A program made the position numbers and the translations under genes. A DNA stretch of 64,000 nucleotides, from IMG/VR virus record IMGVR_UViG_3300009605_000022; one strand, 5' to 3'. Under the pieces are notes generated by a model, which saw only the letters and a program-made list of their open reading frames with translations, was not told the origin of the DNA and did no database searches. This document shows, piece after piece, positions 2-55,449 of this stretch; the first letter of the stretch is position 1; every line of letters starts with the position of its first letter. This DNA comes from an uncultured virus (IMG/VR IMGVR_UViG_3300009605_000022) (Duplodnaviria > Heunggongvirae > Uroviricota > Caudoviricetes).

Positions 2-3000
2 GGTATTCAAGGTTCTCAAGGTTCTCAAGGTACGACAGGTACAACAGGAACACAAGGTAATACAGGTACACAAGGTAATACAGGAACACAAGGAACTACA
101 GGAACACAAGGAACAACAGGTACTCAAGGAACAACAGGTACTCAAGGAACAGCAGGTTCTGGTGGTGGTTCAGGTACTCAAGGTACACAAGGTACACAGG
201 GTACTCAAGGTACACAAGGTACTACAGGAACACAAGGAACTACAGGGACACAGGGAACTACAGGAACACAAGGAACTACTGGAGCTCAAGGTACAACTGG
301 AACACAGGGTACTACGGGAACTCAAGGAACTCAAGGAACACAGGGAACTGAGGGACTATTCGGTGGTAACAGTATAGAATTTAATTATAGCAGTTTCGAT
401 ATTACTGCTGGCTCTCCCGGCCAAACTAATGTCGGATTTAATATTGCATTGCCCGGAGGTGGTGGTACACCTAATTATGGTTTAATTTCTAAAGTTGGTA
501 TTTCTGACTTTGATATTAACACTACAGATGTCAGTGATTGGAACGATTCACTGGATGATGGTACTAGCACAGTAAGAGGGCATTTACGGATTTTTAAGAC
601 TGATGATTCAAATAAATATGTTACTTTTAACATTACAGGGTCTAATGTAGCTGGAGGAGTAGGTGTTACAGCTTACGAGGAAGTACAAGTACAGTATGTT
701 GATAATAATGGTTTTTTCACAAATGGTGATGATATTGTTGTTTCATATGTAAAAAGTGGTGACTTAGGAACGCAAGGAGCTACAGGTACACAAGGTAATA
801 CAGGAACACAAGGAACTACAGGTACACAAGGTACAACTGGTACACAGGGAACTACAGGAACTCAGGGAACAACTGGAACTCAGGGTACAACTGGTACTCA
901 AGGTACTACAGGTACGCAAGGAACTGATGGAACACAAGGAACAACAGGTACACAAGGTACAACTGGTACTCAAGGAACTACAGGAACTCAAGGTACACAA
1001 GGAACACAAGGAACTACAGGAACTCAGGGTACAACTGGAACTCAGGGTACAACTGGTACTCAAGGTACTACAGGTACGCAAGGAACTGATGGAACACAAG
1101 GAACTCAAGGTATCAAAGGAGATACAGGAGACACTGGAGCTCAAGGTACAACTGGTACTCAGGGTACAACAGGAACACAAGGAACTACAGGTACACAAGG
1201 AACAACAGGAACACAAGGAACTGATGGAACACAAGGTACACAAGGAACACAGGGTACAAATGGTACTCAAGGTACTACTGGTACTCAAGGAACGACAGGA
1301 ACACAAGGAACTACAGGTACACAAGGAACAACAGGAACACAAGGTACTGTTGGTGCTACTGGTGGTGGAGGTGCTACTGGTTCTCAGGGTATCAAAGGTG
1401 ATACTGGAGATACTGGTTCTCAAGGTACTACAGGTACGCAGGGAACTACAGGTACGCAGGGAACTACAGGTACACAAGGTACAACAGGTACACAAGGAAC
1501 TACAGGAACACAAGGTACTCAAGGTGCGATAGGAACTACTGGTTCACAAGGAACTACAGGAACTCAAGGTACAACTGGTACTACAGGAACTCAAGGTAAT
1601 ACAGGAGCTACTGGCGCACAAGGAACTACAGGAACACAAGGAACTACAGGTACGCAAGGAACTGATGGAACACAAGGTACAACTGGAACTCAAGGTACTG
1701 CTGGTACAGTTACAGGTGGTTCACAAGGTGCTGTTGGTACACAGGGAACTGATGGAGATACTGGAAGTCAAGGAACTACAGGTACACAGGGTACAACTGG
1801 TACTCAAGGTACTACAGGAACTCAAGGTACTGTTGGTGCTACTGGTAGTGGAGGTGCAACTGGTTCTCAAGGAACTACAGGTACACAAGGTACAACTGGT
1901 ACACAGGGAACAACAGGTACACAAGGAACTACAGGAACTCAGGGTACAACTGGCTCTCAAGGTACTACAGGTTCTACTGGTAGTGGAGGTGCAACTGGTT
2001 CTCAAGGAACTACAGGAACTCAGGGTACAACTGGTACACAGGGAACAACCGGTACACAAGGAACTACAGGTACACAAGGAACTACAGGAACTCAGGGTAC
2101 AACAGGAACACAAGGTACAACAGGAACACAAGGTACAACAGGAACTACAGGAGGCACAGGAAGTCAAGGAGCTGCTGGAAGTAATGGTGGTACAGGAAGT
2201 CAAGGTACACAAGGAACATCTGGTGGTTCAGCATCTCAGGGTACAACAGGAGCTACAGGAACACAAGGAACTACAGGTACAACAGGAAGTCAAGGTACAA
2301 CTGGAACTCAAGGAACTAATGGAACTACAGGAAGTCAAGGTACAACAGGAAATACTGGTACTCAAGGTACTCAAGGTATTAAAGGAGATACAGGTTCTGG
2401 TGGAGCTACTGGTTCACAAGGAACTACAGGTACAACAGGAAGTCAAGGTACAACTGGAACTCAAGGAACTAATGGAGCTACAGGAAGTCAAGGAACTACA
2501 GGTACAACAGGAAATACTGGTCCTCAAGGTACTCAAGGTATAAGAGGATTAGAAGGAGCACAGGGTGCTCAAGGAATATCTGGTGGTTCAGCATCTCAAG
2601 GTACACAAGGAACACAAGGAACTACAGGTGCTGGAGGAGGCACAGGAAGTCAAGGTACAGCAGGTTCTAATGGTTCTACAGGTACACAAGGTACAACAGG
2701 AAGTACAGGAAGTACAGGAAGTACTGGTTCTCAAGGTACAACAGGAACTCAAGGTACACAAGGTGTTAGAGGTCCTATAGGTTCAACAGGACCACAAGGA
2801 ACTAATGGTTCTACAGGTTCACAAGGAACTACAGGAGCTGGAACACAAGGAACTGTAGGAGCTCAAGGATTACCGGGAGACCCCGGAACACCGGGTGGTG
2901 CAGGTTCACAAGGTACACAAGGTATTAAAGGAGATACTGGTGGTGGAGGTTCTCAAGGTACTACAGGAACACAGGGAACTAATGGTTCTACAGGAACACA

Positions 3001-3340
3001 AGGTACTACAGGAGCTGGAACACAAGGAACTACTGGTTCTGGTGGTGGTACAGGTTCTCAAGGAACTGCTGGTTCAAATGGTTCTGGAGGTTCACAAGGT
3101 TCTCAAGGTACAACTGGTGCTACTGGTGGTGGAGGAGGTGGAGGTGGTACTACACTTTCACACGGAGGTTCTGGAGGTGCATCATATAACGTACCCGGAC
3201 CGGGAGCTCCAGTATCATCTATGACATCTGGTGCACCATTAGAAATGTTTGATATGGCTGGCGGAGGTTTCGTAGCTAATGGTTACGTTCACGGAACAAT
3301 AGGTGGAGTGGTCTATTATTGGCCATCATGGACAACATAA
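2..3340 (+). CDS. Collagen-like (Gly-X-Y; GTQ/GTT) fibre protein, 5'-truncated by the window edge
   Basis: Frame is open from nt 2 (ggt att caa ggt tct caa...) through the 449..3340 ORF; hundreds of Gly-Thr-Gln/Gly-Thr-Thr triplets, one globular insert (~355-760) and a short C-terminal domain. Confidence 0.9.
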   Translation, partial: GIQGSQGSQGTTGTTGTQGNTGTQGNTGTQGTTGTQGTTGTQGTTGTQGTAGSGGGSGTQGTQGTQGTQGTQGTTGTQGTTGTQGTTGTQGTTGAQGTTGTQGTTGTQGTQGTQGTEGLFGGNSIEFNYSSFDITAGSPGQTNVGFNIALPGGGGTPNYGLISKVGISDFDINTTDVSDWNDSLDDGTSTVRGHLRIFKTDDSNKYVTFNITGSNVAGGVGVTAYEEVQVQYVDNNGFFTNGDDIVVSYVKSGDLGTQGATGTQGNTGTQGTTGTQGTTGTQGTTGTQGTTGTQGTTGTQGTTGTQGTDGTQGTTGTQGTTGTQGTTGTQGTQGTQGTTGTQGTTGTQGTTGTQGTTGTQGTDGTQGTQGIKGDTGDTGAQGTTGTQGTTGTQGTTGTQGTTGTQGTDGTQGTQGTQGTNGTQGTTGTQGTTGTQGTTGTQGTTGTQGTVGATGGGGATGSQGIKGDTGDTGSQGTTGTQGTTGTQGTTGTQGTTGTQGTTGTQGTQGAIGTTGSQGTTGTQGTTGTTGTQGNTGATGAQGTTGTQGTTGTQGTDGTQGTTGTQGTAGTVTGGSQGAVGTQGTDGDTGSQGTTGTQGTTGTQGTTGTQGTVGATGSGGATGSQGTTGTQGTTGTQGTTGTQGTTGTQGTTGSQGTTGSTGSGGATGSQGTTGTQGTTGTQGTTGTQGTTGTQGTTGTQGTTGTQGTTGTQGTTGTTGGTGSQGAAGSNGGTGSQGTQGTSGGSASQGTTGATGTQGTTGTTGSQGTTGTQGTNGTTGSQGTTGNTGTQGTQGIKGDTGSGGATGSQGTTGTTGSQGTTGTQGTNGATGSQGTTGTTGNTGPQGTQGIRGLEGAQGAQGISGGSASQGTQGTQGTTGAGGGTGSQGTAGSNGSTGTQGTTGSTGSTGSTGSQGTTGTQGTQGVRGPIGSTGPQGTNGSTGSQGTTGAGTQGTVGAQGLPGDPGTPGGAGSQGTQGIKGDTGGGGSQGTTGTQGTNGSTGTQGTTGAGTQGTTGSGGGTGSQGTAGSNGSGGSQGSQGTTGATGGGGGGGGTTLSHGGSGGASYNVPGPGAPVSSMTSGAPLEMFDMAGGGFVANGYVHGTIGGVVYYWPSWTT

Positions 3341-3379
3341 TGACGATAGCTTTAAATACAATGAGGAGATATATTTAAT

Positions 3380-3592
3380 ATGAAGGTTGAAGAACGTGAT
3401 GAACTTTTAGTCCGAATGGATGAAAGAGTAAAGACTGTCTATAATAGAATGGATAGATTCGAAACGCTTTTCACAAATCACTTAGCACATCACGAAACGT
3501 GGGAAAAGGAAATGAATACCGAACTGAGGTGGGGTATTGGTCTTTTAACTACTGTCGTGGCTGGGTTAATCGCAGCAATGAGGTTTATGTAA
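3380..3592 (+). CDS. Small coiled-coil protein with C-terminal TM helix (XhlA/holin-like)
   Basis: LLVRMDERVK coiled coil, hydrophobic C-terminus, GAGGAG RBS upstream. Confidence 0.5.
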   Translation: MKVEERDELLVRMDERVKTVYNRMDRFETLFTNHLAHHETWEKEMNTELRWGIGLLTTVVAGLIAAMRFM

Positions 3593-38503: not shown

Positions 38504-39166
38504 TTACCATAGTGTTACCTTAAGTTTTATCCATGCTCTTACCCATCCATTAGGTTTAGGATTCTTGTAGCCTTTCCTAAGTTTCTTTGCACACCATCGA
38601 TACATTTCATTAGCGTATCTAATTGGTTTTCTAACATTTCTTGGTAGATATTTTAATCCACGTTCACCAAAGTAAAGTGACGCTTCAAACATATCTAAGT
38701 ATCTATTATGGTCTGTTCCTATATAATGGTATCCCCGTGCGACATCTTCATCATAGTCTCTGACGAAGTTAATTATCTGGTAAGCTCTACCTAAGTGCTC
38801 AGCGTAAGGATAAGCTGACTCTGGTGCATCTAATAGCTTAGCCATCATCAGTCCAATAACCTCAGCTGAACCTCTGCAATATCTTAGCATAGATTCATCA
38901 TCATGTATCTTATGATTCAAATCCATTCTCATAGAATTATAGAAGTCATGCTTCCATTCCATAGGCATATCATATTTTTTCTGAACGTATGCAAAGTTGT
39001 AAGCTAACCTCTCAAGGTCACCTACTACCTCGTCACCGTCGACTATGTTGTCTATGTGTCTTATAAATCCATACAACGCATATACATCCTTTTGCTTCTC
39101 AGTTGGAAAAGCTTTAGTGCAACATGCAAATGTTGTTGAACATTTATCCATTACTTCTTTCGTCAT
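38504..39166 (-). CDS. crtB: Phytoene/squalene synthase family protein
   Basis: VYALYGFIRHIDNIVD, YCRGSAEVIG, LGRAYQIINFVRDYDED..RG; likely start at MTKEV (39166). Confidence 0.85.
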   Translation of the reverse strand: MTKEVMDKCSTTFACCTKAFPTEKQKDVYALYGFIRHIDNIVDGDEVVGDLERLAYNFAYVQKKYDMPMEWKHDFYNSMRMDLNHKIHDDESMLRYCRGSAEVIGLMMAKLLDAPESAYPYAEHLGRAYQIINFVRDYDEDVARGYHYIGTDHNRYLDMFEASLYFGERGLKYLPRNVRKPIRYANEMYRWCAKKLRKGYKNPKPNGWVRAWIKLKVTLW

Positions 39167-39429
39167 GTTAATAACATGTATCCTACTGTAAATGATATAA
39201 CTATGAGACATGCCCATATGTATAACAGATAGTCGTAGGTTGTCCATTCCTCTTCTTTTTTATTCATTTGTTTTTTTACCTTTGGTTTTGCTACTATAAA
39301 GTGTGGAACTTTGTTCCAACAATCATCACAGAGATAGGCTCTGAGATGAGGGTCGTCACTCATGTAGTGTATTTTACACATCTTACAGTTGTGCCATAAT
39401 GCTTTGTAGTAAGTTGGATTAGGAGTCAT
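39163..39429 (-). CDS. Zn-finger protein with C-terminal TM helix
   Basis: CKMC...CDDC and hydrophobic tail. Confidence 0.55.
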   Translation of the reverse strand: MTPNPTYYKALWHNCKMCKIHYMSDDPHLRAYLCDDCWNKVPHFIVAKPKVKKQMNKKEEEWTTYDYLLYIWACLIVISFTVGYMLLT

Positions 39430-42185: not shown

Positions 42186-44303
42186 TCAAACTTTTATCAC
42201 CTTTCTTATTATTTTGCTTACCTCAGTAGATAACTTCTCGGTATCGTCAACAATTACATAGTTGGTAAACATCTGAGCCATACTTGATTCACGTGCACCT
42301 GAGATACCTATCTGAATAACACTCCAACCTTGTCCTTCTATATGTCTGACACACTTCTTAGTATGTGCGATTCCATCGAAGTGTCTGTAGTTTTTAGCTG
42401 AGGGCTCTCCATCTGAGATAACAATCATAAGTCTGTTACTACCCATTGATGGTGATTCAGCTTTTACTCTGTCAGCTGAGGCTAAGATAGCCATACCGTC
42501 TCGGTTCTCTGACCGAGCTCTCATAGCTCCCATAGCTTTTAAGTCACTCTTATAAGTTGGTGACCAGTAACAAGACATGTTTGTCTCACCGGTTCCATCC
42601 CAATCGTAACCGTCAGCAGTGTGACCATAAACCCATAAGTTTAGTTTGTCATTATCTTTGAGTGCTTCACGTATAGCGATTGCACTCTCACGTGCTTTTT
42701 GCATTTTGTATGAACCCATGCTACCTGACTCGTCAACTAAGAGACATACATCTAATGGTTTGTCTTCGTCAACAATAATGTTTTTGAATAAGTCAGTTCG
42801 ACCGAGGGGTATCTTATGTAACATACGTTTATCTAATCTACCTCTTGGTTGGTTGCGAATAGTGTAGGCTTGAGTGTTACCATAGAGTTGTATACGTTTC
42901 TTCAGTTGACTGATGCTCTGTTTCATTCTTGATACACCGTTGTCGTATGAATACTTGGCGTCGGTATGACTCTTTTGGTTTCTCCATGTAACTTTAGTTC
43001 CTTGTTTTAAACCGAGAGCTCTACCTGTGTCCCACTTTTCTTCGCTATACATAGTGTCTTCTAACTCTGTGATAGCTTTTTCTAAGTCTGTGCTGATAGT
43101 ATCTAAGTCTGCACTGTAGTCAGCCATCTCAGTTGATGCACTCTCTACTCCGTCCATGATAGTTCGCATAGGTCCGGCTCTATCTTCATACTTTTTGTCA
43201 TCGGTAGCTTTCTGAACTAATTTATCTAAGATGTCATCTAACTGACTCTCAGTTAATAATTCTTTTGTCTTATCATCCCAATCATTCATAAGCCTATCCA
43301 TTTCAGCTTCAGCTTTTTCTTTGGGTGATGGACCATCCTTTGCATCCTTCTCAGCTATATCTTTTGCCAACTGATTCATATACTCATAGATAGTTACAGT
43401 TGCTTCCCACATACTTTCTCGGTTGTTGTTTGAATTGACTAAAGCTCGAGCAAAGAACTGAATGTGATTCGCATGTCTTTTCTTTCTCTCTTCATCTAAA
43501 GCTGAGGGATATCTAACTAAGGCCAGTAAAGTATTGATTACATCACCGAACTCATTTACTTTTTCCATCTTGCTTCCATGCTTATCGAAGTAATGCTCTT
43601 TCACTTTTGCAATGTAGTGAGTGAACCCACCATGTGTTTTACCTAACTGAGACTCGATGAACTCATCTTCGAGTATGTTAGCTATATTATGTATAAGCTT
43701 TTCTTGAGGTGGTCTCAGCTTATGGTCATAAGCATATACTCTTTCTAATTTTAATAAAGGCTTACTGTAAACTAAATGTAACTTCTCGTGTATAGCAAGA
43801 CCAGCAACAATATCTAACTTAGAATCGTCTCGGTCTAACAATGTGCCGTCAACATAGATTAATCCACGGTTGATGTTGGAATAACTTTTCTCGGTTGCAT
43901 AGTTTAATACATGTTTTACAGTTGGGTCTACAACTTTACAGAGAGAATCAAGATGAGCTTTGTGTTTGACTAATCTTTTTTCTTTGTCCGCTCTGTCGAA
44001 GTGAGATGATGCACCCCACATAGAGGTCATAGCTCCGACGCCTCGGTTCCACCATGAACCACCACTACCCCACGTGAATCCGCTACTTCTACCATAAAGG
44101 TCACCAGTAGCTGAGACAGTTGGTGCAGTTGAACTGTATGCTTTTGCTACGTGTGGAGTGAGGAAAGGGTCGACTGTATTGTATTTGATACCACAGGCTT
44201 TACAGTTCCCGTGACCATCATCCGCAGTCCAGTCATCACATGCGTCACAGAAGTCATCTTCCGTGTCCTCAGCCCAATCGTCTATTGAATGTCCGTAATC
44301 CAT
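42186..44303 (-). CDS. VWA-domain protein (CobT/NorD-like, MoxR partner)
   Basis: MIDAS LVDESGSM, ISDGEP; N-terminal HEKLH and ILED. Confidence 0.9.
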   Translation of the reverse strand: MDYGHSIDDWAEDTEDDFCDACDDWTADDGHGNCKACGIKYNTVDPFLTPHVAKAYSSTAPTVSATGDLYGRSSGFTWGSGGSWWNRGVGAMTSMWGASSHFDRADKEKRLVKHKAHLDSLCKVVDPTVKHVLNYATEKSYSNINRGLIYVDGTLLDRDDSKLDIVAGLAIHEKLHLVYSKPLLKLERVYAYDHKLRPPQEKLIHNIANILEDEFIESQLGKTHGGFTHYIAKVKEHYFDKHGSKMEKVNEFGDVINTLLALVRYPSALDEERKKRHANHIQFFARALVNSNNNRESMWEATVTIYEYMNQLAKDIAEKDAKDGPSPKEKAEAEMDRLMNDWDDKTKELLTESQLDDILDKLVQKATDDKKYEDRAGPMRTIMDGVESASTEMADYSADLDTISTDLEKAITELEDTMYSEEKWDTGRALGLKQGTKVTWRNQKSHTDAKYSYDNGVSRMKQSISQLKKRIQLYGNTQAYTIRNQPRGRLDKRMLHKIPLGRTDLFKNIIVDEDKPLDVCLLVDESGSMGSYKMQKARESAIAIREALKDNDKLNLWVYGHTADGYDWDGTGETNMSCYWSPTYKSDLKAMGAMRARSENRDGMAILASADRVKAESPSMGSNRLMIVISDGEPSAKNYRHFDGIAHTKKCVRHIEGQGWSVIQIGISGARESSMAQMFTNYVIVDDTEKLSTEVSKIIRKVIKV

Positions 44304-44662
44304 TGTTCTACCTTTTCTATTTCGTCTTCGTCTTCAGCTATGAACTTGAACTTAAAGCACTCGAGTGACTTCTTAGCTGAGCCTACACTACACTGATAGA
44401 CAAACATGTCTTCAGCTGAGACTAATCCTAATGCCATCTCACTTGCTTGATTCCTATTCATAGTTGGTTTTACAGGAATAATAATATCTTCATCCTGTAG
44501 TAATCTTCTTTTGTATGCACCGATGTGTCTACCATTTATCTCAGTTTCTGGAAATACATCCTTAATAATGTGTGAACACATAGTGGGTTTCAATCCTAAC
44601 TGTAATAACATTTTAGCCAACTGATGCCAATACGTTTGTTTTCTGTTTCCTTTCTTACTCAT
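44282..44662 (-). CDS. Hypothetical protein
   Basis: Likely start at MSKKGNRK (44662). Confidence 0.55.
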   Translation of the reverse strand: MSKKGNRKQTYWHQLAKMLLQLGLKPTMCSHIIKDVFPETEINGRHIGAYKRRLLQDEDIIIPVKPTMNRNQASEMALGLVSAEDMFVYQCSVGSAKKSLECFKFKFIAEDEDEIEKVEQWITDIQ

Positions 44663-44824
44663 AATAAAACTCCGGTTCTCTATCTTCGAAATCGCTAACG
44701 AGCTGAGCAATGATGCCATAAATAATACTATTCTCCATATCTGTAGCCGGTTCGAGTGTTGAGAAGTAATCAGCTAAGATAGCAAACTCTTCCATGTCTA
44801 ACCCTACAACGAACTTAGGCAAAC

Positions 44825-45988
44825 TTAGTCCCCCATAGATTGAATGACTTGTATAACTCTAACTCTCTCAGTGTCGTCACCTGCTTGAACAGGGTAGAAT
44901 GGTAGACAGGTATGTTTGAGTGCATCGATTAAACTCATGCCGTCAACTACTAACTCAGCTACTGCTAAACACATACGTGTTGAGACAGCAGTCGTAAGTT
45001 CGTCTGAACTGTGTAGGTCACGCACTCTCTTAGCGAAGTCTACTATCTTCTCTGCTGAGTAGTCATCTAACTGAGGGTTACGAATCATAACTAATTCTTT
45101 TTCTTTACTCATAGGTAAGTAGTCTAACTCATAGATACCACCTGTGAACCTATCTTTCCATGCTCTATCTAAATCATGAGATGCACCGAGATACTCTCGG
45201 CCTATGTTAGCAGTAGCATAGAAGAATGCTTGACTGTCAACTGAGACAGCGTCAGCGTCTTCACTCTCATCGAGTGCTAAATACTTTTGACCATCTAACA
45301 CTGGCATGAGAATATTAGCTAAGTCACCTGTTCGGTCACGGGTAACCTCATCTAACATAATGAATGAGTTCTGTTGAATTGCTTGGACAAACCGAGATGG
45401 TTTGAACCATGTTCCTGCTTCTTTGTCATACTTAGTATCACCTAACAGTTTAGCTGAGGGATTCATAGTATCACCAAAGTTGAAAGAATAAAATTCTTTA
45501 TTGGTAATGTCTGCTAATATCTTACCGAGACTACTCTTACCACATCCTGATGGACCTGTGATGAGAATGTTCTTACCTCGAAATATATTGCGTAACATTG
45601 TGTAGAATGTAATGTTATCGGCGAACTTAAATTCCTCCGGTATTTGAACTGAGCCTCTTAGCTTAGCCATTACTGTTTGCTTTTCTTCTACGGGTTCCGG
45701 TTCACTGGCCGGTGCCTCTACTTGCATGGGGTCTTCCTCAGTTGGTTCGTCTTTACCGAACAAACTGCCTAAACCCTCGTGAGTCGTTTCTGATTCCATT
45801 GATTCTCCAGTATCATCTTCCTTTATAAAGGTATCGGTCATTGGACTGAGACCTGCTTTCCATCTCTTTATACCACGGGTATCGGCTGAGACATGCCATA
45901 TTCTTCCGTCACCACCTTTCTTCTCATGTCCTAAGTCATACCATGTCGCGGACTGAGTAGGTGATGGTCTTGTTTTTCTTTCTGCCAT
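44825..45988 (-). CDS. MoxR/CbbQ/CobS-like AAA+ ATPase
   Basis: GPSGCGKS, MLDEVTR, ATAN, DRAWKDRF, STR. Confidence 0.9.
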   Translation of the reverse strand: MAERKTRPSPTQSATWYDLGHEKKGGDGRIWHVSADTRGIKRWKAGLSPMTDTFIKEDDTGESMESETTHEGLGSLFGKDEPTEEDPMQVEAPASEPEPVEEKQTVMAKLRGSVQIPEEFKFADNITFYTMLRNIFRGKNILITGPSGCGKSSLGKILADITNKEFYSFNFGDTMNPSAKLLGDTKYDKEAGTWFKPSRFVQAIQQNSFIMLDEVTRDRTGDLANILMPVLDGQKYLALDESEDADAVSVDSQAFFYATANIGREYLGASHDLDRAWKDRFTGGIYELDYLPMSKEKELVMIRNPQLDDYSAEKIVDFAKRVRDLHSSDELTTAVSTRMCLAVAELVVDGMSLIDALKHTCLPFYPVQAGDDTERVRVIQVIQSMGD

Positions 45989-46789: not shown

Positions 46790-47325
46790 GAGACCAACTG
46801 AGATTAACGTGTTTAAAACTATACTGAGAGCTATCCCTATATTAACTATATTAAGATATGGCTCTATTATGCAATATAGAGATATAATAAAAATGCTTTA
46901 TAGAGCTTGATTTGTAGAGCTATGATATACTGAGCAATGCTTAACTGAGCATGTTTTATTAAGCAATGCATAACTATGCTTATAATATATACACCCCCCT
47001 ACTATATAATACTTTGTCTCAGTTCACACATAACTGATAAAAGTTTTTTAAAACAGGCTCTACTAAGCAATTTTCTCATGCTCAGTTAGCGACAATGAAC
47101 TTAAACTGGTTTTAGTTTGGTATAGCTCAACTGAGAAGTGCTCAATTACTCACTGAGGGGGCCTGATAGAGCTTGCTCTTTTCTCACCCTGCCCTACAGA
47201 TAAACTGAGAGCTTGTTTTCTCACCCTCGGTTAGCGAGCTGAGAGATTTTTCTCATCGAGCCCTATAAAGCTAGGCTGAGAGAAGCTAAAAATAAAAAGA
47301 GAACTTAATAGAGCTGAGCTGAGAA
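46790..47325. repeat. Non-coding region with many short repeats (CTGAG, TAGAGC, TTTTCTCA); candidate origin or control region
   Basis: AGAGCTTG..TTTTCTCACCCT at 47168-47190 and 47208-47227; about a dozen CTGAG/CTCAG copies; AT-rich left half. Confidence 0.5.
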
Positions 47326-47326
47326 A

Positions 47327-47345
47327 TCCATACGTGTGGAAAAAT
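47327..47345. repeat. Module-boundary palindrome, copy 1
   Basis: TCCATACGTGTGGAAAAAT. Confidence 0.75.
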
Positions 47346-47375
47346 AAAAAAAGTTAGTTTATATAGGGGTGGGTA

Positions 47376-47575
47376 GGAGGATTTAATGTATACCTCCAAA
47401 CGCATTATGCCACTACATAGTAGATGCGTTACCAGTCTAACCTTCCTCCAGCAGTTGCTTCTCGGTTGGTTAATCCTGTGCCTTAGTCCGTGGCGGACTT
47501 GTTCGGCCATACCCGATTACGGAAGAGCTACTTCCATAAATGTAAAAGTGGGCAGTTTTCTGAGTTGCCCAGCTG
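47376..47575 (+). ncRNA. Candidate ~200-nt structured RNA (strand uncertain, + favoured)
   Basis: Five consecutive hairpins; plus-strand TTTATATA at 47358-47365; stem 47549-47571 extends by G-U pairs only on +. Confidence 0.4.
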
Positions 47576-48255: not shown

Positions 48256-48260
48256 TAAAA

Positions 48261-48690
48261 AATGCAACTTCACCTGAGGCTCCGCGTGTTTAAGAAACAC
48301 CTCAGGGAGCGGTTGCCCGAGAGCACATTAATCTGCATAGGTAGTGCTACACGTGGGGTGTGACCTGTCGCCAGTCAAAAGGATATCCTTCACGAAAGGC
48401 GAACACAAGCATGAACAGGTGTGATACTCATAGCTTAACGGATTGATTCTATAACAGGGATAAAGTGATTCAAAGGTGATACATAATGTTAGCTACACGT
48501 CGTTCTAAAACTTAGATGCGCATCGACCGGAAAGGGATTGGGTCAGCACTGTTCAGCTAGTATTTGTTATGTGAATGTCTCGTTGTTGCGTATGGTTCGA
48601 TTTTGTTTCCTTGTCAGGTCACGTGTTACAGCTGATAACTGTAAGTGAGCGGGTGCAATACTATTTTGCTATTTTCATCTCCCCGCTCTG
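48261..48690 (-). ncRNA. Candidate ~430-nt structured ncRNA with its own promoter and U-rich terminator
   Basis: No minus-strand ORF in the track; starts directly under the type-A promoter; long-range GUGACCUG/CAGGUCAC helix; nested 3' helices; ends at UUUUUUAUUUUU. Confidence 0.7.
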
Positions 48691-48721
48691 TATTACCAAT
48701 AGAGTGTCTCTATATAAGCTT
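48691..48721 (-). promoter_or_regulatory. Type-A promoter, copy 2
   Basis: (+) TATTACCAATAGAGTGTCTCTATATAAGCTT. Confidence 0.8.
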
Positions 48722-49746: not shown

Positions 49747-49796
49747 TACCAACGGGTGTGTCTATATAAAGCTTTTTTCACACGTGTGGAAAAGCT
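49747..49796 (-). promoter_or_regulatory. Type-B promoter plus boundary palindrome, copy 4
   Basis: (+) TACCAA..CTATATAAAGCTTTTTTCACACGTGTGGAAAAGCT. Confidence 0.8.
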
Positions 49797-50132
49797 GGCG
49801 CCCCGCCGACTTAAAAGAAGCCGGTTATGGGGGTAACCTGCGTTTAGCTGTCCTACCATTATAGGCTGGCTTACTAAACTGAAGATGCGTCGCTACGTTT
49901 AACGCTCGGGCGGACTTATGCCTAAGGCCCTTCGCCATCACTTGTCAGGCGTCTCCTATTGTCCACGATGCTGGACAGTTTATTAGACTGACTCATACAC
50001 TTGCCCTTTCCGTTGGGGGAACCTACTCCTTCGGCCTCCTTCTTACAGTGTTCGTGGACTCACGGAACATAATCTCTTTTGGGCTGAGTGTAATACTATT
50101 TTACTATTTTCATCGTCTCAGCCCGTTAGAGG
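49797..50132 (-). ncRNA. Candidate ~335-nt structured ncRNA
   Basis: More GC-rich than the genome; no credible ORF; begins with the same hairpin motif as 48647-48688; several hairpins; G-U pair in CCGGCUU/AAGUCGG supports the minus strand. Confidence 0.65.
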
Positions 50133-50140
50133 TGCGTGGT

Positions 50141-50209
50141 TTATAATTTTCTTGTTGCGTATGATATTCCTACTAACCATGTTAGTAAGCTACTTTGGTA
50201 TGTGTTCAT
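50141..50209 (-). CDS. 22-aa microprotein
   Basis: MNTYQSSLLTWLVGISYATRKL; GGAGG RBS; TAATG coupling. Confidence 0.45.
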   Translation of the reverse strand: MNTYQSSLLTWLVGISYATRKL

Positions 50210-50307
50210 TAGTCGCCTCCTTTTCTTATTAAGTATTGATAGTGAAATGGTCTACCGTTTTTCTTAAAGTCTTTTGCTAGCTTTGCCCAGTGTTGTCTTC
50301 GTGTCAT
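50209..50307 (-). CDS. 32-aa basic microprotein
   Basis: MTRRQHWAKLAK...; AGAGG RBS under the type-A promoter. Confidence 0.55.
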   Translation of the reverse strand: MTRRQHWAKLAKDFKKNGRPFHYQYLIRKGGD

Positions 50308-50319
50308 GTTTTTCCTCTG

Positions 50320-50350
50320 TATTACCAATAGGGTGTCCCTATATAAGCTT
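50320..50350 (-). promoter_or_regulatory. Type-A promoter, copy 4
   Basis: (+) TATTACCAATAGGGTGTCCCTATATAAGCTT. Confidence 0.8.
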
Positions 50351-51418: not shown

Positions 51419-51733
51419 TTAGGCCCTCCTGTGCCCAGTGTTTGCCATACCTTGACATTCTGGCTCAGAGCCATATTGTCGGTAGTGTTCAGCAACCAAA
51501 GAAGCTTCATGTTCTAAAGCTTCCCATGGGTTTGAAAATTCTTTCAATACTATCATGGATACATCATGACCTTTTTTAGGCCTGTGTTTACTAAGTCTTG
51601 ACTGGGGGTCTTGAGTTAGTCCGTAATAGATTGCATCCTTATCTATTCCTTGTGTATAATCGACGTCAAAGAAGTGATAACTTGTCTTTTCTGTCTGTCT
51701 GGCTAGTTTGTATATATAGTAGTTGTTGTTCAT
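51419..51733 (-). CDS. GIY-YIG nuclease family protein
   Basis: YIY...YYGLT..P..RLSKH...ALEHE. Confidence 0.75.
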   Translation of the reverse strand: MNNNYYIYKLARQTEKTSYHFFDVDYTQGIDKDAIYYGLTQDPQSRLSKHRPKKGHDVSMIVLKEFSNPWEALEHEASLVAEHYRQYGSEPECQGMANTGHRRA

Positions 51734-51824
51734 ATTACTTACCTCTTACCTATACAGGGGCAACACCCTATATAAGCTTAAGTGTTTTAAAGGAGGGGGT
51801 ATATAAGTAAATCCAAGCAAATGG

Positions 51825-51902
51825 AAAAAAACGCAAAAAAAATGACAAAAAAATGCAAAAAATCGCGCAAAAAATGCGCTAAAAAAACGCCAAAAACGCG
51901 CC
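51825..51902. repeat. Seven helically phased A-tracts (intrinsically bent DNA)
   Basis: A5-A8 tracts start at 51825, 51835, 51847, 51857, 51869, 51881 and 51892. Confidence 0.8.
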
Positions 51903-52265
51903 AATGTCGCGCGCTATAAATTTATTAAAAATCGCGCTAATGTATATATTATCTTATTATATTATCTTTTTCAGTATACCCCCGTCTAAAAAAATCATGC
52001 CCCCACCTAAACACACAGGCGCCTAGGGGTTTAAACAAATCGAGCCATTTTTTGAAAGCACTAAATAAGAATATACTATAAGCACTGTGTTTAAACTATA
52101 TATCGCTAAGTATCTCTTGCATTATTAATCAAGCTCTTTTAACCATGCTCTATTAGTCTCTCTTACGCGCGTAGGATAGCCAGTGAACTGAGAAGCAAGC
52201 TCTACATACCACAACTCTTATATACTCTGAGGTAGTATAATTATATACAAAAAAGGAAACTAACT

Positions 52266-52751: not shown

Positions 52752-53827
52752 TGGAGCTTAATATGATTGAGATAAAACATTTAATGAAAGACTCTTTAGT
52801 GCCTTTGGCTTTAGAGAGAGGAGGAACTGTAAAGCCTCTTATAATACCAGCAGCCGAGACCGGTGGGTTAGGATTATGCAACCCGTCGATATACCACGTA
52901 CCTAAGACATCTAAGTACTTGATTAATGTGCGTAATGTATCTTATTACTTACACCACTGTGAAGGAGACCAGAAGTACCAAACACCATGGGGTCCTTTGA
53001 ATTATGTAAGACCAGATAACGATGCATACCTAAGAACTAAGAATTTTATATGCGATTATAATTTAGGACAGGGTAAGATAACCAAGCATAAACTATTAGA
53101 TACATCTAAATTTAAGAAAGAACCTGAGTGGGACTTTGTAGGATTAGAGGATGGACGTATAGTGGAGTGGGAAGGTAAAACATATTTAACCGGCGTTAGG
53201 CGCTACGCGCCTGATGGCAAAGGAAGGATGGTGCTGTCTGAAATTGAGATTACTAAAAAAGGAGTCAAGGAAGTTGGTCGATATGTGATGGACTCTCCTA
53301 ATGGTCCTGAAGAATACTGTGAGAAGAACTGGATGCCTATCTTAGATATGCCATTCCATTATGTTCATACAGCTAACCCACTTAAGATTGTCAAAGTAGA
53401 TATAAATGAAAAGTGGAAACATAACCCAATAAAGTATAGGTGTCCTGTTAACGTAGTACACGAAGGTAAAGAAGAGATACCTCTACAGTTAGACCCTCGT
53501 GGCAGTTCACAACTTGTACCATGGAAGGATGGTTATCTATGTGTAACACATGAATGTGACTACTGGCATAATGAGAAAAATGACAGAGACGCACATTACT
53601 ATCACAGGTTTATATACTGGGACAAAGAATGGAACCTAAAAGGATATTCACAACCGTACAAGTTTATGGATGGTAGAATAGAATTCTGTTGTGGTATGGC
53701 AGGTCACCCTGATGCACAGTGTGATGACATGCTTATAACATATGGCTTCCAAGATAATTCTGCTTATGTACTACACATAAAAGAAGACCATATACTAGAG
53801 TTATTGGAGCATTCAAATAAGGAATGA
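52751..53827 (+). CDS. Beta-propeller glycosidase/phosphorylase-like protein
   Basis: NPSI, GLEDGR, EKNWMP, RGSS, YYHRF, IEFCCG, YGFQD. Confidence 0.6.
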   Translation: MELNMIEIKHLMKDSLVPLALERGGTVKPLIIPAAETGGLGLCNPSIYHVPKTSKYLINVRNVSYYLHHCEGDQKYQTPWGPLNYVRPDNDAYLRTKNFICDYNLGQGKITKHKLLDTSKFKKEPEWDFVGLEDGRIVEWEGKTYLTGVRRYAPDGKGRMVLSEIEITKKGVKEVGRYVMDSPNGPEEYCEKNWMPILDMPFHYVHTANPLKIVKVDINEKWKHNPIKYRCPVNVVHEGKEEIPLQLDPRGSSQLVPWKDGYLCVTHECDYWHNEKNDRDAHYYHRFIYWDKEWNLKGYSQPYKFMDGRIEFCCGMAGHPDAQCDDMLITYGFQDNSAYVLHIKEDHILELLEHSNKE

Positions 53828-55449
53828 ACAATTACTGGAAAACCACAGCGTGGCCTACGCTAGAGATAACAACCTCAATTCCTAAAGCAGGATGCGTAGT
53901 TGATTGTGTCTTTTGTCCACAACGAGTCTTACAGAAAGTATGGGATGCTGAGAAGTTCACTACTAACGCAGCTAGAACTATGAAGCTCGAGGACTTCAAG
54001 ATGGTAATAGATAAATTACCTAAAGAAGTGAGGATTACTTTCTCAGGGTTCACCGAACCTTGGTTAAATAAAAATACTACTGACATGTTGTTATATGCAC
54101 ATGAGCAGGGACATAGGGTATCCGTATTTACTACAGCAGTAGGTATGCAACTCAAAGACGTTGAAAGAATAAAAGACATTCCATTCTGTGGTGGACCTAA
54201 TGGTGGGTTTACTTTACACTTACCTGATACAGAAAGGTTAGCCAAACATCCAGTAAATAAGAAGTACATTAAAGTAGTTCAAGCACTTAAAGACGCCAAT
54301 ATCAATAATTTTCAAACGATGTCTATGGGCATGGTTCATGAAGAGGTGGTAGATATTTATCCAGACGAAGAAGTCAATAAATATGAAATGTGGCACAGAG
54401 CAGGTAACCTATTAGGTGAAGCTCAACTTAAACCAGAAGTAAAAGAAGTATGGGATAGATTTAAATCAATAATGCATGAGGATGAAATGACATGTGGTTG
54501 TGTAGAAGATTTATATCATAATATCTTATTACCTAATGGTGAAGTATCTTTATGTTGTATGGATTATAATTTAGAAGAGATACTTGGTAATTTATATACT
54601 GAAGAGTATGACGACATACTACCACCACCAAATACTACATATGATATGTGTAGCAGGTGTGAGAATGGTGTTCCACCTATGAAACTAAGTGGATGGGAAG
54701 AAGAGATAACAATAAACCCACAAGGAACATCACCAGAGAGTAATGCACCTATTCTCGTCAAAGAAGAAACAATAGATAGATTAGATTATAACAATTACTT
54801 TGTTCCAGAAGCTATGGTACAATATTTAGATAATAATAAAGTTCCAGAGCATGAAATAATAAACTGGGCTAAGAATAACTTCTGTCATAACGAAAAGACG
54901 TTTGTAGACATAGGAGCACATGTTGGTACATATACATGGACACTAGCACCGTTCTTTAGTAGTACAGTTAGTTTCGAACCTACTAAGTCAACATATAATT
55001 ATTTATGTGGAAACGTAATGCTTAAGAACCTGTCAAAGAAAGTTACAACTCATAACGTAGCTTTAGGTGCAGAAGAAACTACCATGATGTTTTACGAAAG
55101 AAGTAAAGATGGTGGTACTAATGGATTGAACTTAGATTACAACAATGGTAAATGGTTAGGTAATGACCAAGACCACTACGAAGTAAAAGTAAATAGATTA
55201 GATGATTATAAACTAATGAATGTAGGATTTATAAAAATAGATGTAGAAGGCTATGAGCTTGCAGTATTAAAAGGAGCAACCACAACATTACAGAACAATG
55301 GTTACCCTCCAATACTATTCGAAAGCTGGCCTGCTAACAATCCAGAGAATACTTTATTGAAAGATAATTTATTTAATTACTTATTCGCATTAGGATACAA
55401 AATAGGAAGTACACCACACCCCGAGATATTTATAGCAAGGAAAGATTAA
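53824..55449 (+). CDS. Radical SAM/SPASM protein fused to an FkbM-family methyltransferase
   Basis: CVVDCVFC, FSGFTEP, NGEVSLCCMD, C..C; then VDIGAHVG, SFEP, IKIDVEGYE..VLKG. Confidence 0.85.
   Translation: MNNYWKTTAWPTLEITTSIPKAGCVVDCVFCPQRVLQKVWDAEKFTTNAARTMKLEDFKMVIDKLPKEVRITFSGFTEPWLNKNTTDMLLYAHEQGHRVSVFTTAVGMQLKDVERIKDIPFCGGPNGGFTLHLPDTERLAKHPVNKKYIKVVQALKDANINNFQTMSMGMVHEEVVDIYPDEEVNKYEMWHRAGNLLGEAQLKPEVKEVWDRFKSIMHEDEMTCGCVEDLYHNILLPNGEVSLCCMDYNLEEILGNLYTEEYDDILPPPNTTYDMCSRCENGVPPMKLSGWEEEITINPQGTSPESNAPILVKEETIDRLDYNNYFVPEAMVQYLDNNKVPEHEIINWAKNNFCHNEKTFVDIGAHVGTYTWTLAPFFSSTVSFEPTKSTYNYLCGNVMLKNLSKKVTTHNVALGAEETTMMFYERSKDGGTNGLNLDYNNGKWLGNDQDHYEVKVNRLDDYKLMNVGFIKIDVEGYELAVLKGATTTLQNNGYPPILFESWPANNPENTLLKDNLFNYLFALGYKIGSTPHPEIFIARKD

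Follow-up and report, generated by a model that had tools for sequence, protein, structure and literature searches.

What kind of element follows two micro-ORFs at positions 49797–50132 of an uncultured virus, and what might it do? The question arises in the window, the whole 64,000-nucleotide stretch of IMG/VR record IMGVR_UViG_3300009605_000022 analysed here. A first-pass annotation had described a GC-rich, structured, non-coding segment of ~335 nt, headed by a hairpin that recurs at 48.3–48.7 kb, and had taken it for either a processed ncRNA or a very long structured 3' untranslated region (UTR).

The source is a tailed dsDNA virus: the window encodes a tape measure protein, a tail fibre, a large terminase, a family B polymerase (PolB) and a ribonucleotide reductase (RNR). 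Homologues of the element are marine wherever contig names or sequencing runs state a habitat. Between 46.7 and 51.8 kb the minus strand carries a run of short cassettes, each lying 3' of a repeated TATA-like motif and several also preceded by a 20-nt palindrome. We take these motifs to be putative archaeal BRE–TATA promoters of an early region; a sigma-70 promoter and terminator scan gave chance-level results. The virus probably infects archaea, with Poseidoniales a plausible host, and 'Magrovirus' is only a likely label because host assignment failed. No PolB homologue carried a host name, the squalene-synthase-like gene matched mixed taxa at ~30–36% identity, and RNR found a match in one of 61 Poseidoniia genomes (47% identity). 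A relative's tRNA-Glu reached at best 84% likeness to tRNAs of Poseidoniia genomes, in a comparison without a control group, and an exact pattern search of these genomes returned no match to it.

Several other features of the window are recorded here. A squalene/phytoene synthase-family gene lies at 38504–39247 on the minus strand (E 4e-35; closest cellular relatives ~30–36% identical), an AAA plus VWA pair of CobS/CobT-like character at 42186–45988 (minus strand), and a radical SAM-SPASM domain fused to an FkbM methyltransferase at 53824–55449 (plus strand). The first gene of the cassette block (51419–51733, minus strand) shows a weak GIY-YIG nuclease match of 22.5 bits against a cut-off of 22.6. 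The block is flanked by a low-complexity T/A-rich repeat tract (51815–51903) and an ORF-poor AT-rich stretch (46800–47340), possibly a genome end or origin region.

The conserved RNA and its fold

The cassette that contains the element is organized as follows.

50339–50350, minus strand: BRE/TATA-like promoter (repeated motif D1/D4), putatively archaeal
50209–50307, minus strand: 32-aa micro-ORF, replaced by other ORFs in relatives; no PHROG match
50141–50209, minus strand: 22-aa micro-ORF of a family ending S-Y/F-A-T-R-K; no PHROG match
50081–50124, minus strand: handle, an optional stand-alone module of ~45 nt
50070–50072, minus strand: UUA linker, at -5 to -3 from the core in 42 of 48 distinct flanks
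49841–50067, minus strand: core RNA 'type A', ~227 nt in two domains; scores 254 bits with model R1, whose training set includes the window
49797–49840, minus strand: optional 3' tail with a CCGGCUU/AAGUCGG hairpin; of 61 loci, 16 have the tail start and 6 this hairpin
49773–49793, no strand assigned: palindrome and short U tract, 5' of the next promoter; putative transcript end

The start site of the cassette is predicted near 50320, and the transcript probably ends at the palindrome and U tract (49773–49793). The two micro-ORFs (50307–50209 and 50209–50141), the shared hairpin, all the arm sequences and the downstream palindrome occur where the first-pass annotation had placed them. The segment is indeed GC-rich, at 50% against 38.5% for the window. 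It also contains a structured RNA, of a length different from that described: conservation runs from UUCCNUGAG (50067) to the close of the 3' hairpin (49841), so that the conserved RNA measures ~227 rather than ~335 nt.

Homologues were collected with a handle motif (30 IMG/VR loci, or 35 with a looser pattern) and a 25-nt core motif (67 metagenome loci). Metagenome and viral loci together yielded 53 distinct full cores, three metagenome loci that lack the 5' end having been dropped. The resulting alignment, A1, has 52 rows, the window standing in for the identical L062 and L063 being left out; the rows are related, with a mean identity of 78%, a minimum of 63% and ~31 effective sequences (at 93%). 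Two scans with other motifs recovered the same family and two divergent loci, L113 and L164, together with many chance matches; 15 matches of one scan and most of the other were dropped as unrelated. Model R1 finds a single match within the window (49840–50070) and scores 77–81 bits on L113 and L164, in which the P4 or P3 pairs are swapped and the layout is kept.

The non-coding character proposed earlier is borne out: none of the 52 homologues is open in any sense frame, and their lengths vary freely modulo 3. Single-sequence folding energy does not exceed chance (the 336 nt give z -1.44 and the core z -0.51), so the evidence for structure is covariation, which is strong. RNAalifold applied to the 52-row alignment gave 43 pairs, 22 of them with compensatory change, and unaided it arrived at nearly the same nested fold. 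The full model of 55 pairs, including three crossing helices, is paired in 96.5% of 2860 cells across the homologues, with compensatory changes, both sides altered, at 29 of the 55. The covariation score was 0.362, compared with 0.131 for shuffled and 0.048–0.081 for slid controls, which flatter the fold because the structure was derived from the same sequences; the count of further pair types did not exceed that of the shuffles (144 of 500). A mutual-information scan that took no account of structure has 11 model pairs among its 20 highest, and its third-ranked pair revealed the helix PK3. In seven held-out homologues all parsable helices are preserved: PK1 and Pa in 7 of 7, P1, P4, P5 and PK2 in 6 of 6, and PK3 in 4 of 4. 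The invariance of 25 nt of domain 2 (the P4 3' strand and most of P5) is partly by construction, since these nucleotides served as the search pattern; L113, which was found with another pattern, keeps P5 and alters P4 compensatorily.

Could the segment be no RNA at all, and instead a DNA-level element, a coding region or a set of chance hairpins? The unremarkable folding energy and thin expression evidence would suit such a reading. Against it stand the strong covariation, which extends to crossing helices, the want of any conserved reading frame, and G-U/G-C interchange that works on the minus strand only (one pair is GU in 28 rows and GC in 23). It is largely refuted, and type A is almost certainly a real functional RNA. 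Comparative analysis establishes, at the level of sequence, an evolutionarily selected minus-strand RNA fold at the 3' end of a micro-ORF promoter cassette. The alignment supports well a fold of two branched domains and three long-range helices, two of which cross between one pair of loops.

49961–50059, minus strand: domain 1, nested junctions in which Pa closes Pb, Pc, Pd and Pe (alignment and covariation)
50059-52/49968-61, minus strand: Pa, closing helix of domain 1
50051-47/50001-49997, minus strand: Pb, domain 1
50035-21, minus strand: Pc, domain 1
50017-04, minus strand: Pd, domain 1; its loop pairs in PK1
49990-76, minus strand: Pe, domain 1, with loop CUAAUAA
49881–49956, minus strand: domain 2, a four-way junction in the order P1, P3, GAA, P4, GA, P5
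49956-52/49885-81, minus strand: P1, domain 2 junction
49950-34, minus strand: P3, domain 2, with loop UGACAAG-N4
49930-08, minus strand: P4, domain 2, carrying loop L4
49905-49887, minus strand: P5, domain 2
49842–49879, minus strand: 3' hairpin Ph, whose loop pairs twice with L4 (PK2, PK3)
50008–50067, minus strand: PK1, 5' UUCCN (50067-50063) with Pd loop N'GGAA (50012-50008)
49922-20 with 49870-68, minus strand: PK2, L4 to Ph loop
49915-12 with 49853-50, minus strand: PK3, L4 to Ph loop

The hairpins read earlier from the single sequence fare unevenly in this fold. UGUUC-CGUG/CACG-AACA and UGUCCA/UGGACA are paired in 58.5% and 50.7%, respectively, across the 52 homologues, and their strands have other partners. 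The GUUUAG/CUAAAC stem is real (100% paired), unlike the CCUA/UAGG stem drawn inside it, which is incompatible with a long-range helix that is paired in all 52. The CCGGCUU/AAGUCGG sequence is present; occurring in only 6 of 61 loci and outside the core, it belongs to an optional tail and not to the conserved RNA.

The variable pair of PK1 is AU in 25 rows, GC in 23, UA in one and other in three, two of these last being the misaligned L038 and L040. PK2 shows at least three Watson–Crick pairs in 50 of 52 homologues, register shift allowed, and at least three pairs in 12 of 14 loop types, as against 44 of 162 non-cognate pairings; PK3 is paired in all 52. PK2 and PK3 cross: L4 pairs with the Ph loop twice in the same order, which implies either a nested double pseudoknot or contacts between molecules. 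The Pe loop we take, by its consensus, to be T-loop-like.

PK1 invites comparison with exonuclease-resistant RNAs. According to the accessible part of PMC8374639, viral xrRNAs combine a three-way junction with a pseudoknot formed by the 5' end, and they block RNase J1; type A shares with them a 5' end paired into a junction by a pseudoknot and a location behind a coding region. If domain 1 worked alike, a 5'–3' nuclease would degrade the micro-ORF message and stall at PK1, leaving a stable sub-transcript. The extreme 5' bases of type A do pair into a branched domain, and in L164 domain 1 heads a different body. On the other side, an RNase J family (TIGR00649) scored over its cut-off in none of 61 Poseidoniia genomes, the weak matches being mostly ORFs of ~650 aa, although Poseidoniia are themselves only a plausible host group; L113 and type B, a related form, have no PK1; and type A comes from a DNA virus, has no sequence or model match to xrRNAs and is known from sequence alone, from which a threaded ring is not readable. 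We consider this explanation highly improbable.

Rfam 15, a search suggested earlier, gave no match to type A in segment 49797–50132, and its models, including GOLLD, ROOL and other orphan RNAs, matched none of type A, its divergent forms and the type B loci scanned. The core and handle motifs had no exact match in cellular genome contigs, and R1 found nothing in two sets of Poseidoniia-class genomes (0 of 2 and 0 of 151, searched without a positive control) or in the nearest virus record, G001 (57 kb, 81% complete). Compared with one 16S and one 23S rRNA of the Poseidoniia class, the core, its domains and the handle showed similarity or complementarity no better than shuffles; a resemblance to the 23S GTPase centre was rejected at sequence level on this basis. 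Type A is an uncatalogued RNA family, of which no description was found in the mostly open-access literature. Fremin et al. 2023 predicted 8495 candidates of 29–151 nt from IMG/VR (accessible part of PMC10690425); terms for the type A and handle motifs are absent from three supplements of that study, and a fragment of either may already be among its unnamed models.

Exchangeable modules around the core

In the handle a variable, covarying outer stem surrounds a near-invariant, A-rich centre, which contains a small inner stem that also covaries. The module exists in a long form with an extra hairpin and a short form without it. Of 42 copies, 40 have an outer stem of five pairs or more, and 29 different arms occur (for L004 the automatic pick is not its adjacent stem), and the inner pair is C-G in 36 of 43 and U-A in 7. 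A second copy lies in the window at 48653–48687 (minus strand), and L013 and L029 carry tandem copies. The body of type A is unlike the 48.3–48.7 kb segment, as had been noticed: only the 27-nt handle aligns significantly. The view that one handle sits on different RNA bodies was likewise right, with the qualification that it is optional for both. It precedes type A in 32 of 61 loci, is optional at the start of the 48.3–48.7 kb RNA, and is found as well downstream of manA, upstream of type B or tRNA-Glu, between ORFs and alone. Being optional and present in other settings, it is an independent module and not, as had been supposed, the 5' end of the RNA. If the RNA is processed, its 5' end is likely near 50070–50067, at the conserved UUA followed by UUCC, and not near 50130.

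The handle has some resemblance to a CRISPR repeat; as a CRISPR repeat unit it was rejected, with no exact cellular match, flanks that form a covarying stem and an inserted hairpin that is tolerated. As a C/D box sRNA it gave only a sub-threshold snoR31 match (E 6.5), and no conserved D box was found in 43 copies.

In 37 of 42 rows, which are related and were counted without a formal null, a UUA follows the handle at a distance of at most 14 nt; it is a candidate mark of processing or of the 5' end. The 22-aa ORF is usually 5' of the handle, and handle-bearing loci follow this ORF; type A also occurs without it. Among the 29 handle-less loci the core starts 1–2 nt after a stop codon in 22, a count that leaves out eight handle-bearing rows labelled 'other', and these stop codons belong to three unrelated ORF groups (regex-assigned). 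Altogether, type A follows at least four unrelated micro-ORF families and has a separate promoter downstream; it is never directly 3' of a TATA box, the nearest being at least 114 nt away. These exchanges show, as far as sequence comparison can, a type A fold that depends neither on the protein encoded upstream nor on the handle or the gene that follows.

Expression was examined in four of 23 sequencing runs, all four of them RNA, as contigs that give neither ends nor strand. The core is covered in one of the four, X7, by a single 588-nt contig of a relative that joins upstream ORFs, handle and core; the neighbouring ORFs stand at similar depth to the core, a pattern that gives no sign of type A abundance or of its separation from the message. 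X2, X3 and X15 had no contig on the core, and contig data cannot show absence. The 48.3–48.7 kb RNA is covered in all four runs.

This arrangement could fit a cis-acting 3' UTR whose fold shields the micro-ORF mRNA from 3'–5' decay or sets the termination or translation of the cassette. Type A always lies 3' of an ORF at the end of a unit, close behind the stop codon in those 22 handle-less loci; the single RNA-run contig links ORFs, handle and core; and an exosome is present in candidate hosts, with the Rrp41 family over its cut-off in 42 of 61 Poseidoniia genomes. However, the ORF upstream is readily replaced by others, no such element is found in adjacent micro-ORF cassettes of the window, the stop codon may simply overlap the conserved UUA, and the conserved unpaired bases and three pseudoknot helices are, we infer, more than a decay block would need. 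A cis-acting role is unlikely, though it deserves serious attention.

A further idea is a ribozyme, with catalysis residing in the core or, alternatively, in the handle, which would then be a small self-cleaving element dividing an ncRNA array into units. The handle's near-invariant centre within a freely covarying stem, its tolerance of an inserted hairpin and its position between manA, type A, type B and tRNA units are consistent with cleavage, and crossed pseudoknots occur in known ribozymes. Yet neither core nor handle matches an Rfam ribozyme, 29 of the 61 loci have no handle, and the copy in the 48.7 kb unit stands right at a promoter, where a cut is unneeded. The ribozyme reading is very doubtful.

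Neighbouring RNAs and the type B form

The element belongs to an ncRNA island with manA, a second conserved RNA and, in five relatives, tRNA-Glu; a tRNA/tmRNA scan of the window itself found none. In the window, manA (47366–47539, minus strand; 64.6 bits) is the sole Rfam match, 2.3 kb from type A, and it is present in at least six related loci. No gene follows it in its unit, and in L164 it has a TATA-like motif immediately 5' of it; both speak against cis-regulation here. The second conserved RNA (48258–48692, minus strand) represents a family of ~400 nt with no Rfam match and many homologues among the fetched loci, and it may be the better-expressed RNA of the island. A 9-nt CCUGACAAG common to this RNA and type A is treated as chance because it is not conserved in relatives of the former.

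A second form, type B, was recognized in L003, L008, L009, L013, L015, L016, L019, L024, L026, L028–L030, L293 and L302, an example being L008 ~3070–3270 (plus strand). It has in common with type A an upstream Pe-like hairpin and the order P1/P3/GAA/P4/GA/P5, and by eye its P3 and P4 differ from those of type A by compensatory changes. The P4 arm is larger, with a T-arm-like loop. All eight distinct parsed copies bear a 6-nt palindromic loop, with six different palindromes, a feature that kissing-loop dimers would be expected to show; in type A no palindromic loop is conserved. Model R1 reaches ~25 bits on two intermediate forms and misses the typical type B loci searched, so what links A and B is the motif parse. 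The PolB of four type B viruses is 57–72% identical to that of the window. The two types never occur together in 92 locus rows, which are short and redundant, and L014 carries a B-like form in the slot of type A. A tRNA-Glu(TTC) is often found downstream of type B, as in L003, L008 and L026.

Possible modes of action

Among catalogued RNAs, manA (RF01745) offers the closest comparison in setting: it is of similar size, found in marine viruses, and has a multi-branch fold with loop–loop contacts. By eye, both RNAs show a GCC/GGC-type stem with an ACAA-containing loop after the closing helix. In contrast, no manA match appears on 49797–50132 at E up to 10, the gathering threshold of 55.2 bits being out of reach, although this search does recover the neighbouring manA at 64.6 bits, and R1 does not match manA. 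The manA helix order (closing stem, P3, three-hairpin multiloop, two 3' hairpins) is not that of type A, which has a different junction, a 5'-end pseudoknot domain and a crossed double pairing of one loop pair, and which lies behind a stop codon whereas manA is in a putative 5' UTR.

GOLLD and ROOL are likewise encoded by viruses, rich in pseudoknots and kissing loops, near tRNA genes and unassigned in function, and measure 659 to over 800 nt against 227 nt for type A (accessible part of bioRxiv 10.1101/2024.12.08.627333). Unlike them, type A has no Rfam match, probably an archaeal host, and exchangeable types with detachable modules. As in ornate viral ncRNAs, a covarying complex structure, no coding frame and a viral distribution were found. 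By analogy, type A plausibly works like manA, GOLLD and ROOL, and belongs to none of them. Neither Rfam nor helix order supported a likeness to hammerhead, twister, pistol, c-di-AMP, SAM-II or CRISPR repeats.

Riboswitch aptamers typically show T-loop-like loops, pseudoknots and conserved junctions with exchangeable arms. All of these have counterparts in type A, whose short conserved junction with exchangeable peripheral arms could form an aptamer for a metabolite or a signalling nucleotide; manA was itself first put forward as a riboswitch candidate, as stated in the accessible part of Weinberg et al. 2010 (PMC2864571). Against this, a riboswitch would be a leader placed before a consistent gene, with an expression platform, whereas type A has no such platform and the gene that follows varies and has its own promoter. 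No Rfam riboswitch matches the window at E up to 10, and an AdoCbl-II match in L128 (E 3.6, below cut-off) is at chance level. A ligand-binding role is doubtful.

The overall best explanation, to which we assign a probability of roughly 0.4, is that type A is a released, trans-acting, self-associating scaffold or decoy RNA. It would probably be made from the strong cassette promoter, early in infection, and its transcription would stop in the U tract belonging to the next palindrome. Cleavage at the conserved UUA, or close to it, would free it from the micro-ORF message; PK1 would lock the new 5' end and the Ph pseudoknots the 3' end. The RNA would then act in trans as a compact, protein-free fold, like orphan 'ornate' viral RNAs, most likely self-associating through the L4–Ph double contact and binding or sequestering a host factor during takeover. 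These steps (cassette transcription, UUA release, trans action, self-assembly or decoy) are given in order of falling confidence. That type A is a discrete trans-acting RNA seems somewhat favoured; self-assembly or decoy activity as its mechanism is put forward more tentatively.

Covariation is blind to whether pairing is within or between molecules, so the PK2/PK3 contacts may be of either kind. Related observations are given in the accessible parts of two preprints: manA RNAs form pentamer-based cages via kissing loops in vitro (bioRxiv 10.64898/2026.07.01.735769), and a covarying 'tertiary' contact of ROOL turned out to be intermolecular (bioRxiv 10.1101/2024.12.08.627333).

A more elaborate version of this scheme would be a modular toolkit in which types A, B and manA are exchangeable protein-free particles sharing a T-loop junction. 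The crossed L4–Ph helices would act in trans to chain type A monomers into a ring or cage, and cutting of the array would fall to the ~45-nt handle, as a novel small element that either is catalytic or recruits a nuclease. This version is distinctly unlikely; if true, it would amount to a self-processing, self-assembling RNA system in an archaeal virus.

In the accessible parts of the papers cited here, manA, GOLLD and ROOL come from bacteria, their phages and metagenomes. They are striking structures with no known function. Type A joins them as an uncatalogued family whose fold, with its three pseudoknots, is unusually well determined and whose size permits direct transcription, probing and cryo-EM. 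The natural swaps (A for B, divergent forms, presence or absence of the handle, upstream ORFs) can serve as a set of mutants: they direct attention to a single conserved junction as the functional part, and through them the cage, aptamer and ribozyme hypotheses can be tested directly. The finding also suggests that, in what is probably their early region, these ocean viruses deploy several RNAs besides small proteins. Structured segments near a handle in L007 (~2900–3300) and L010 (~2900–3400) are neither type A nor typical type B and are possibly more RNA types.
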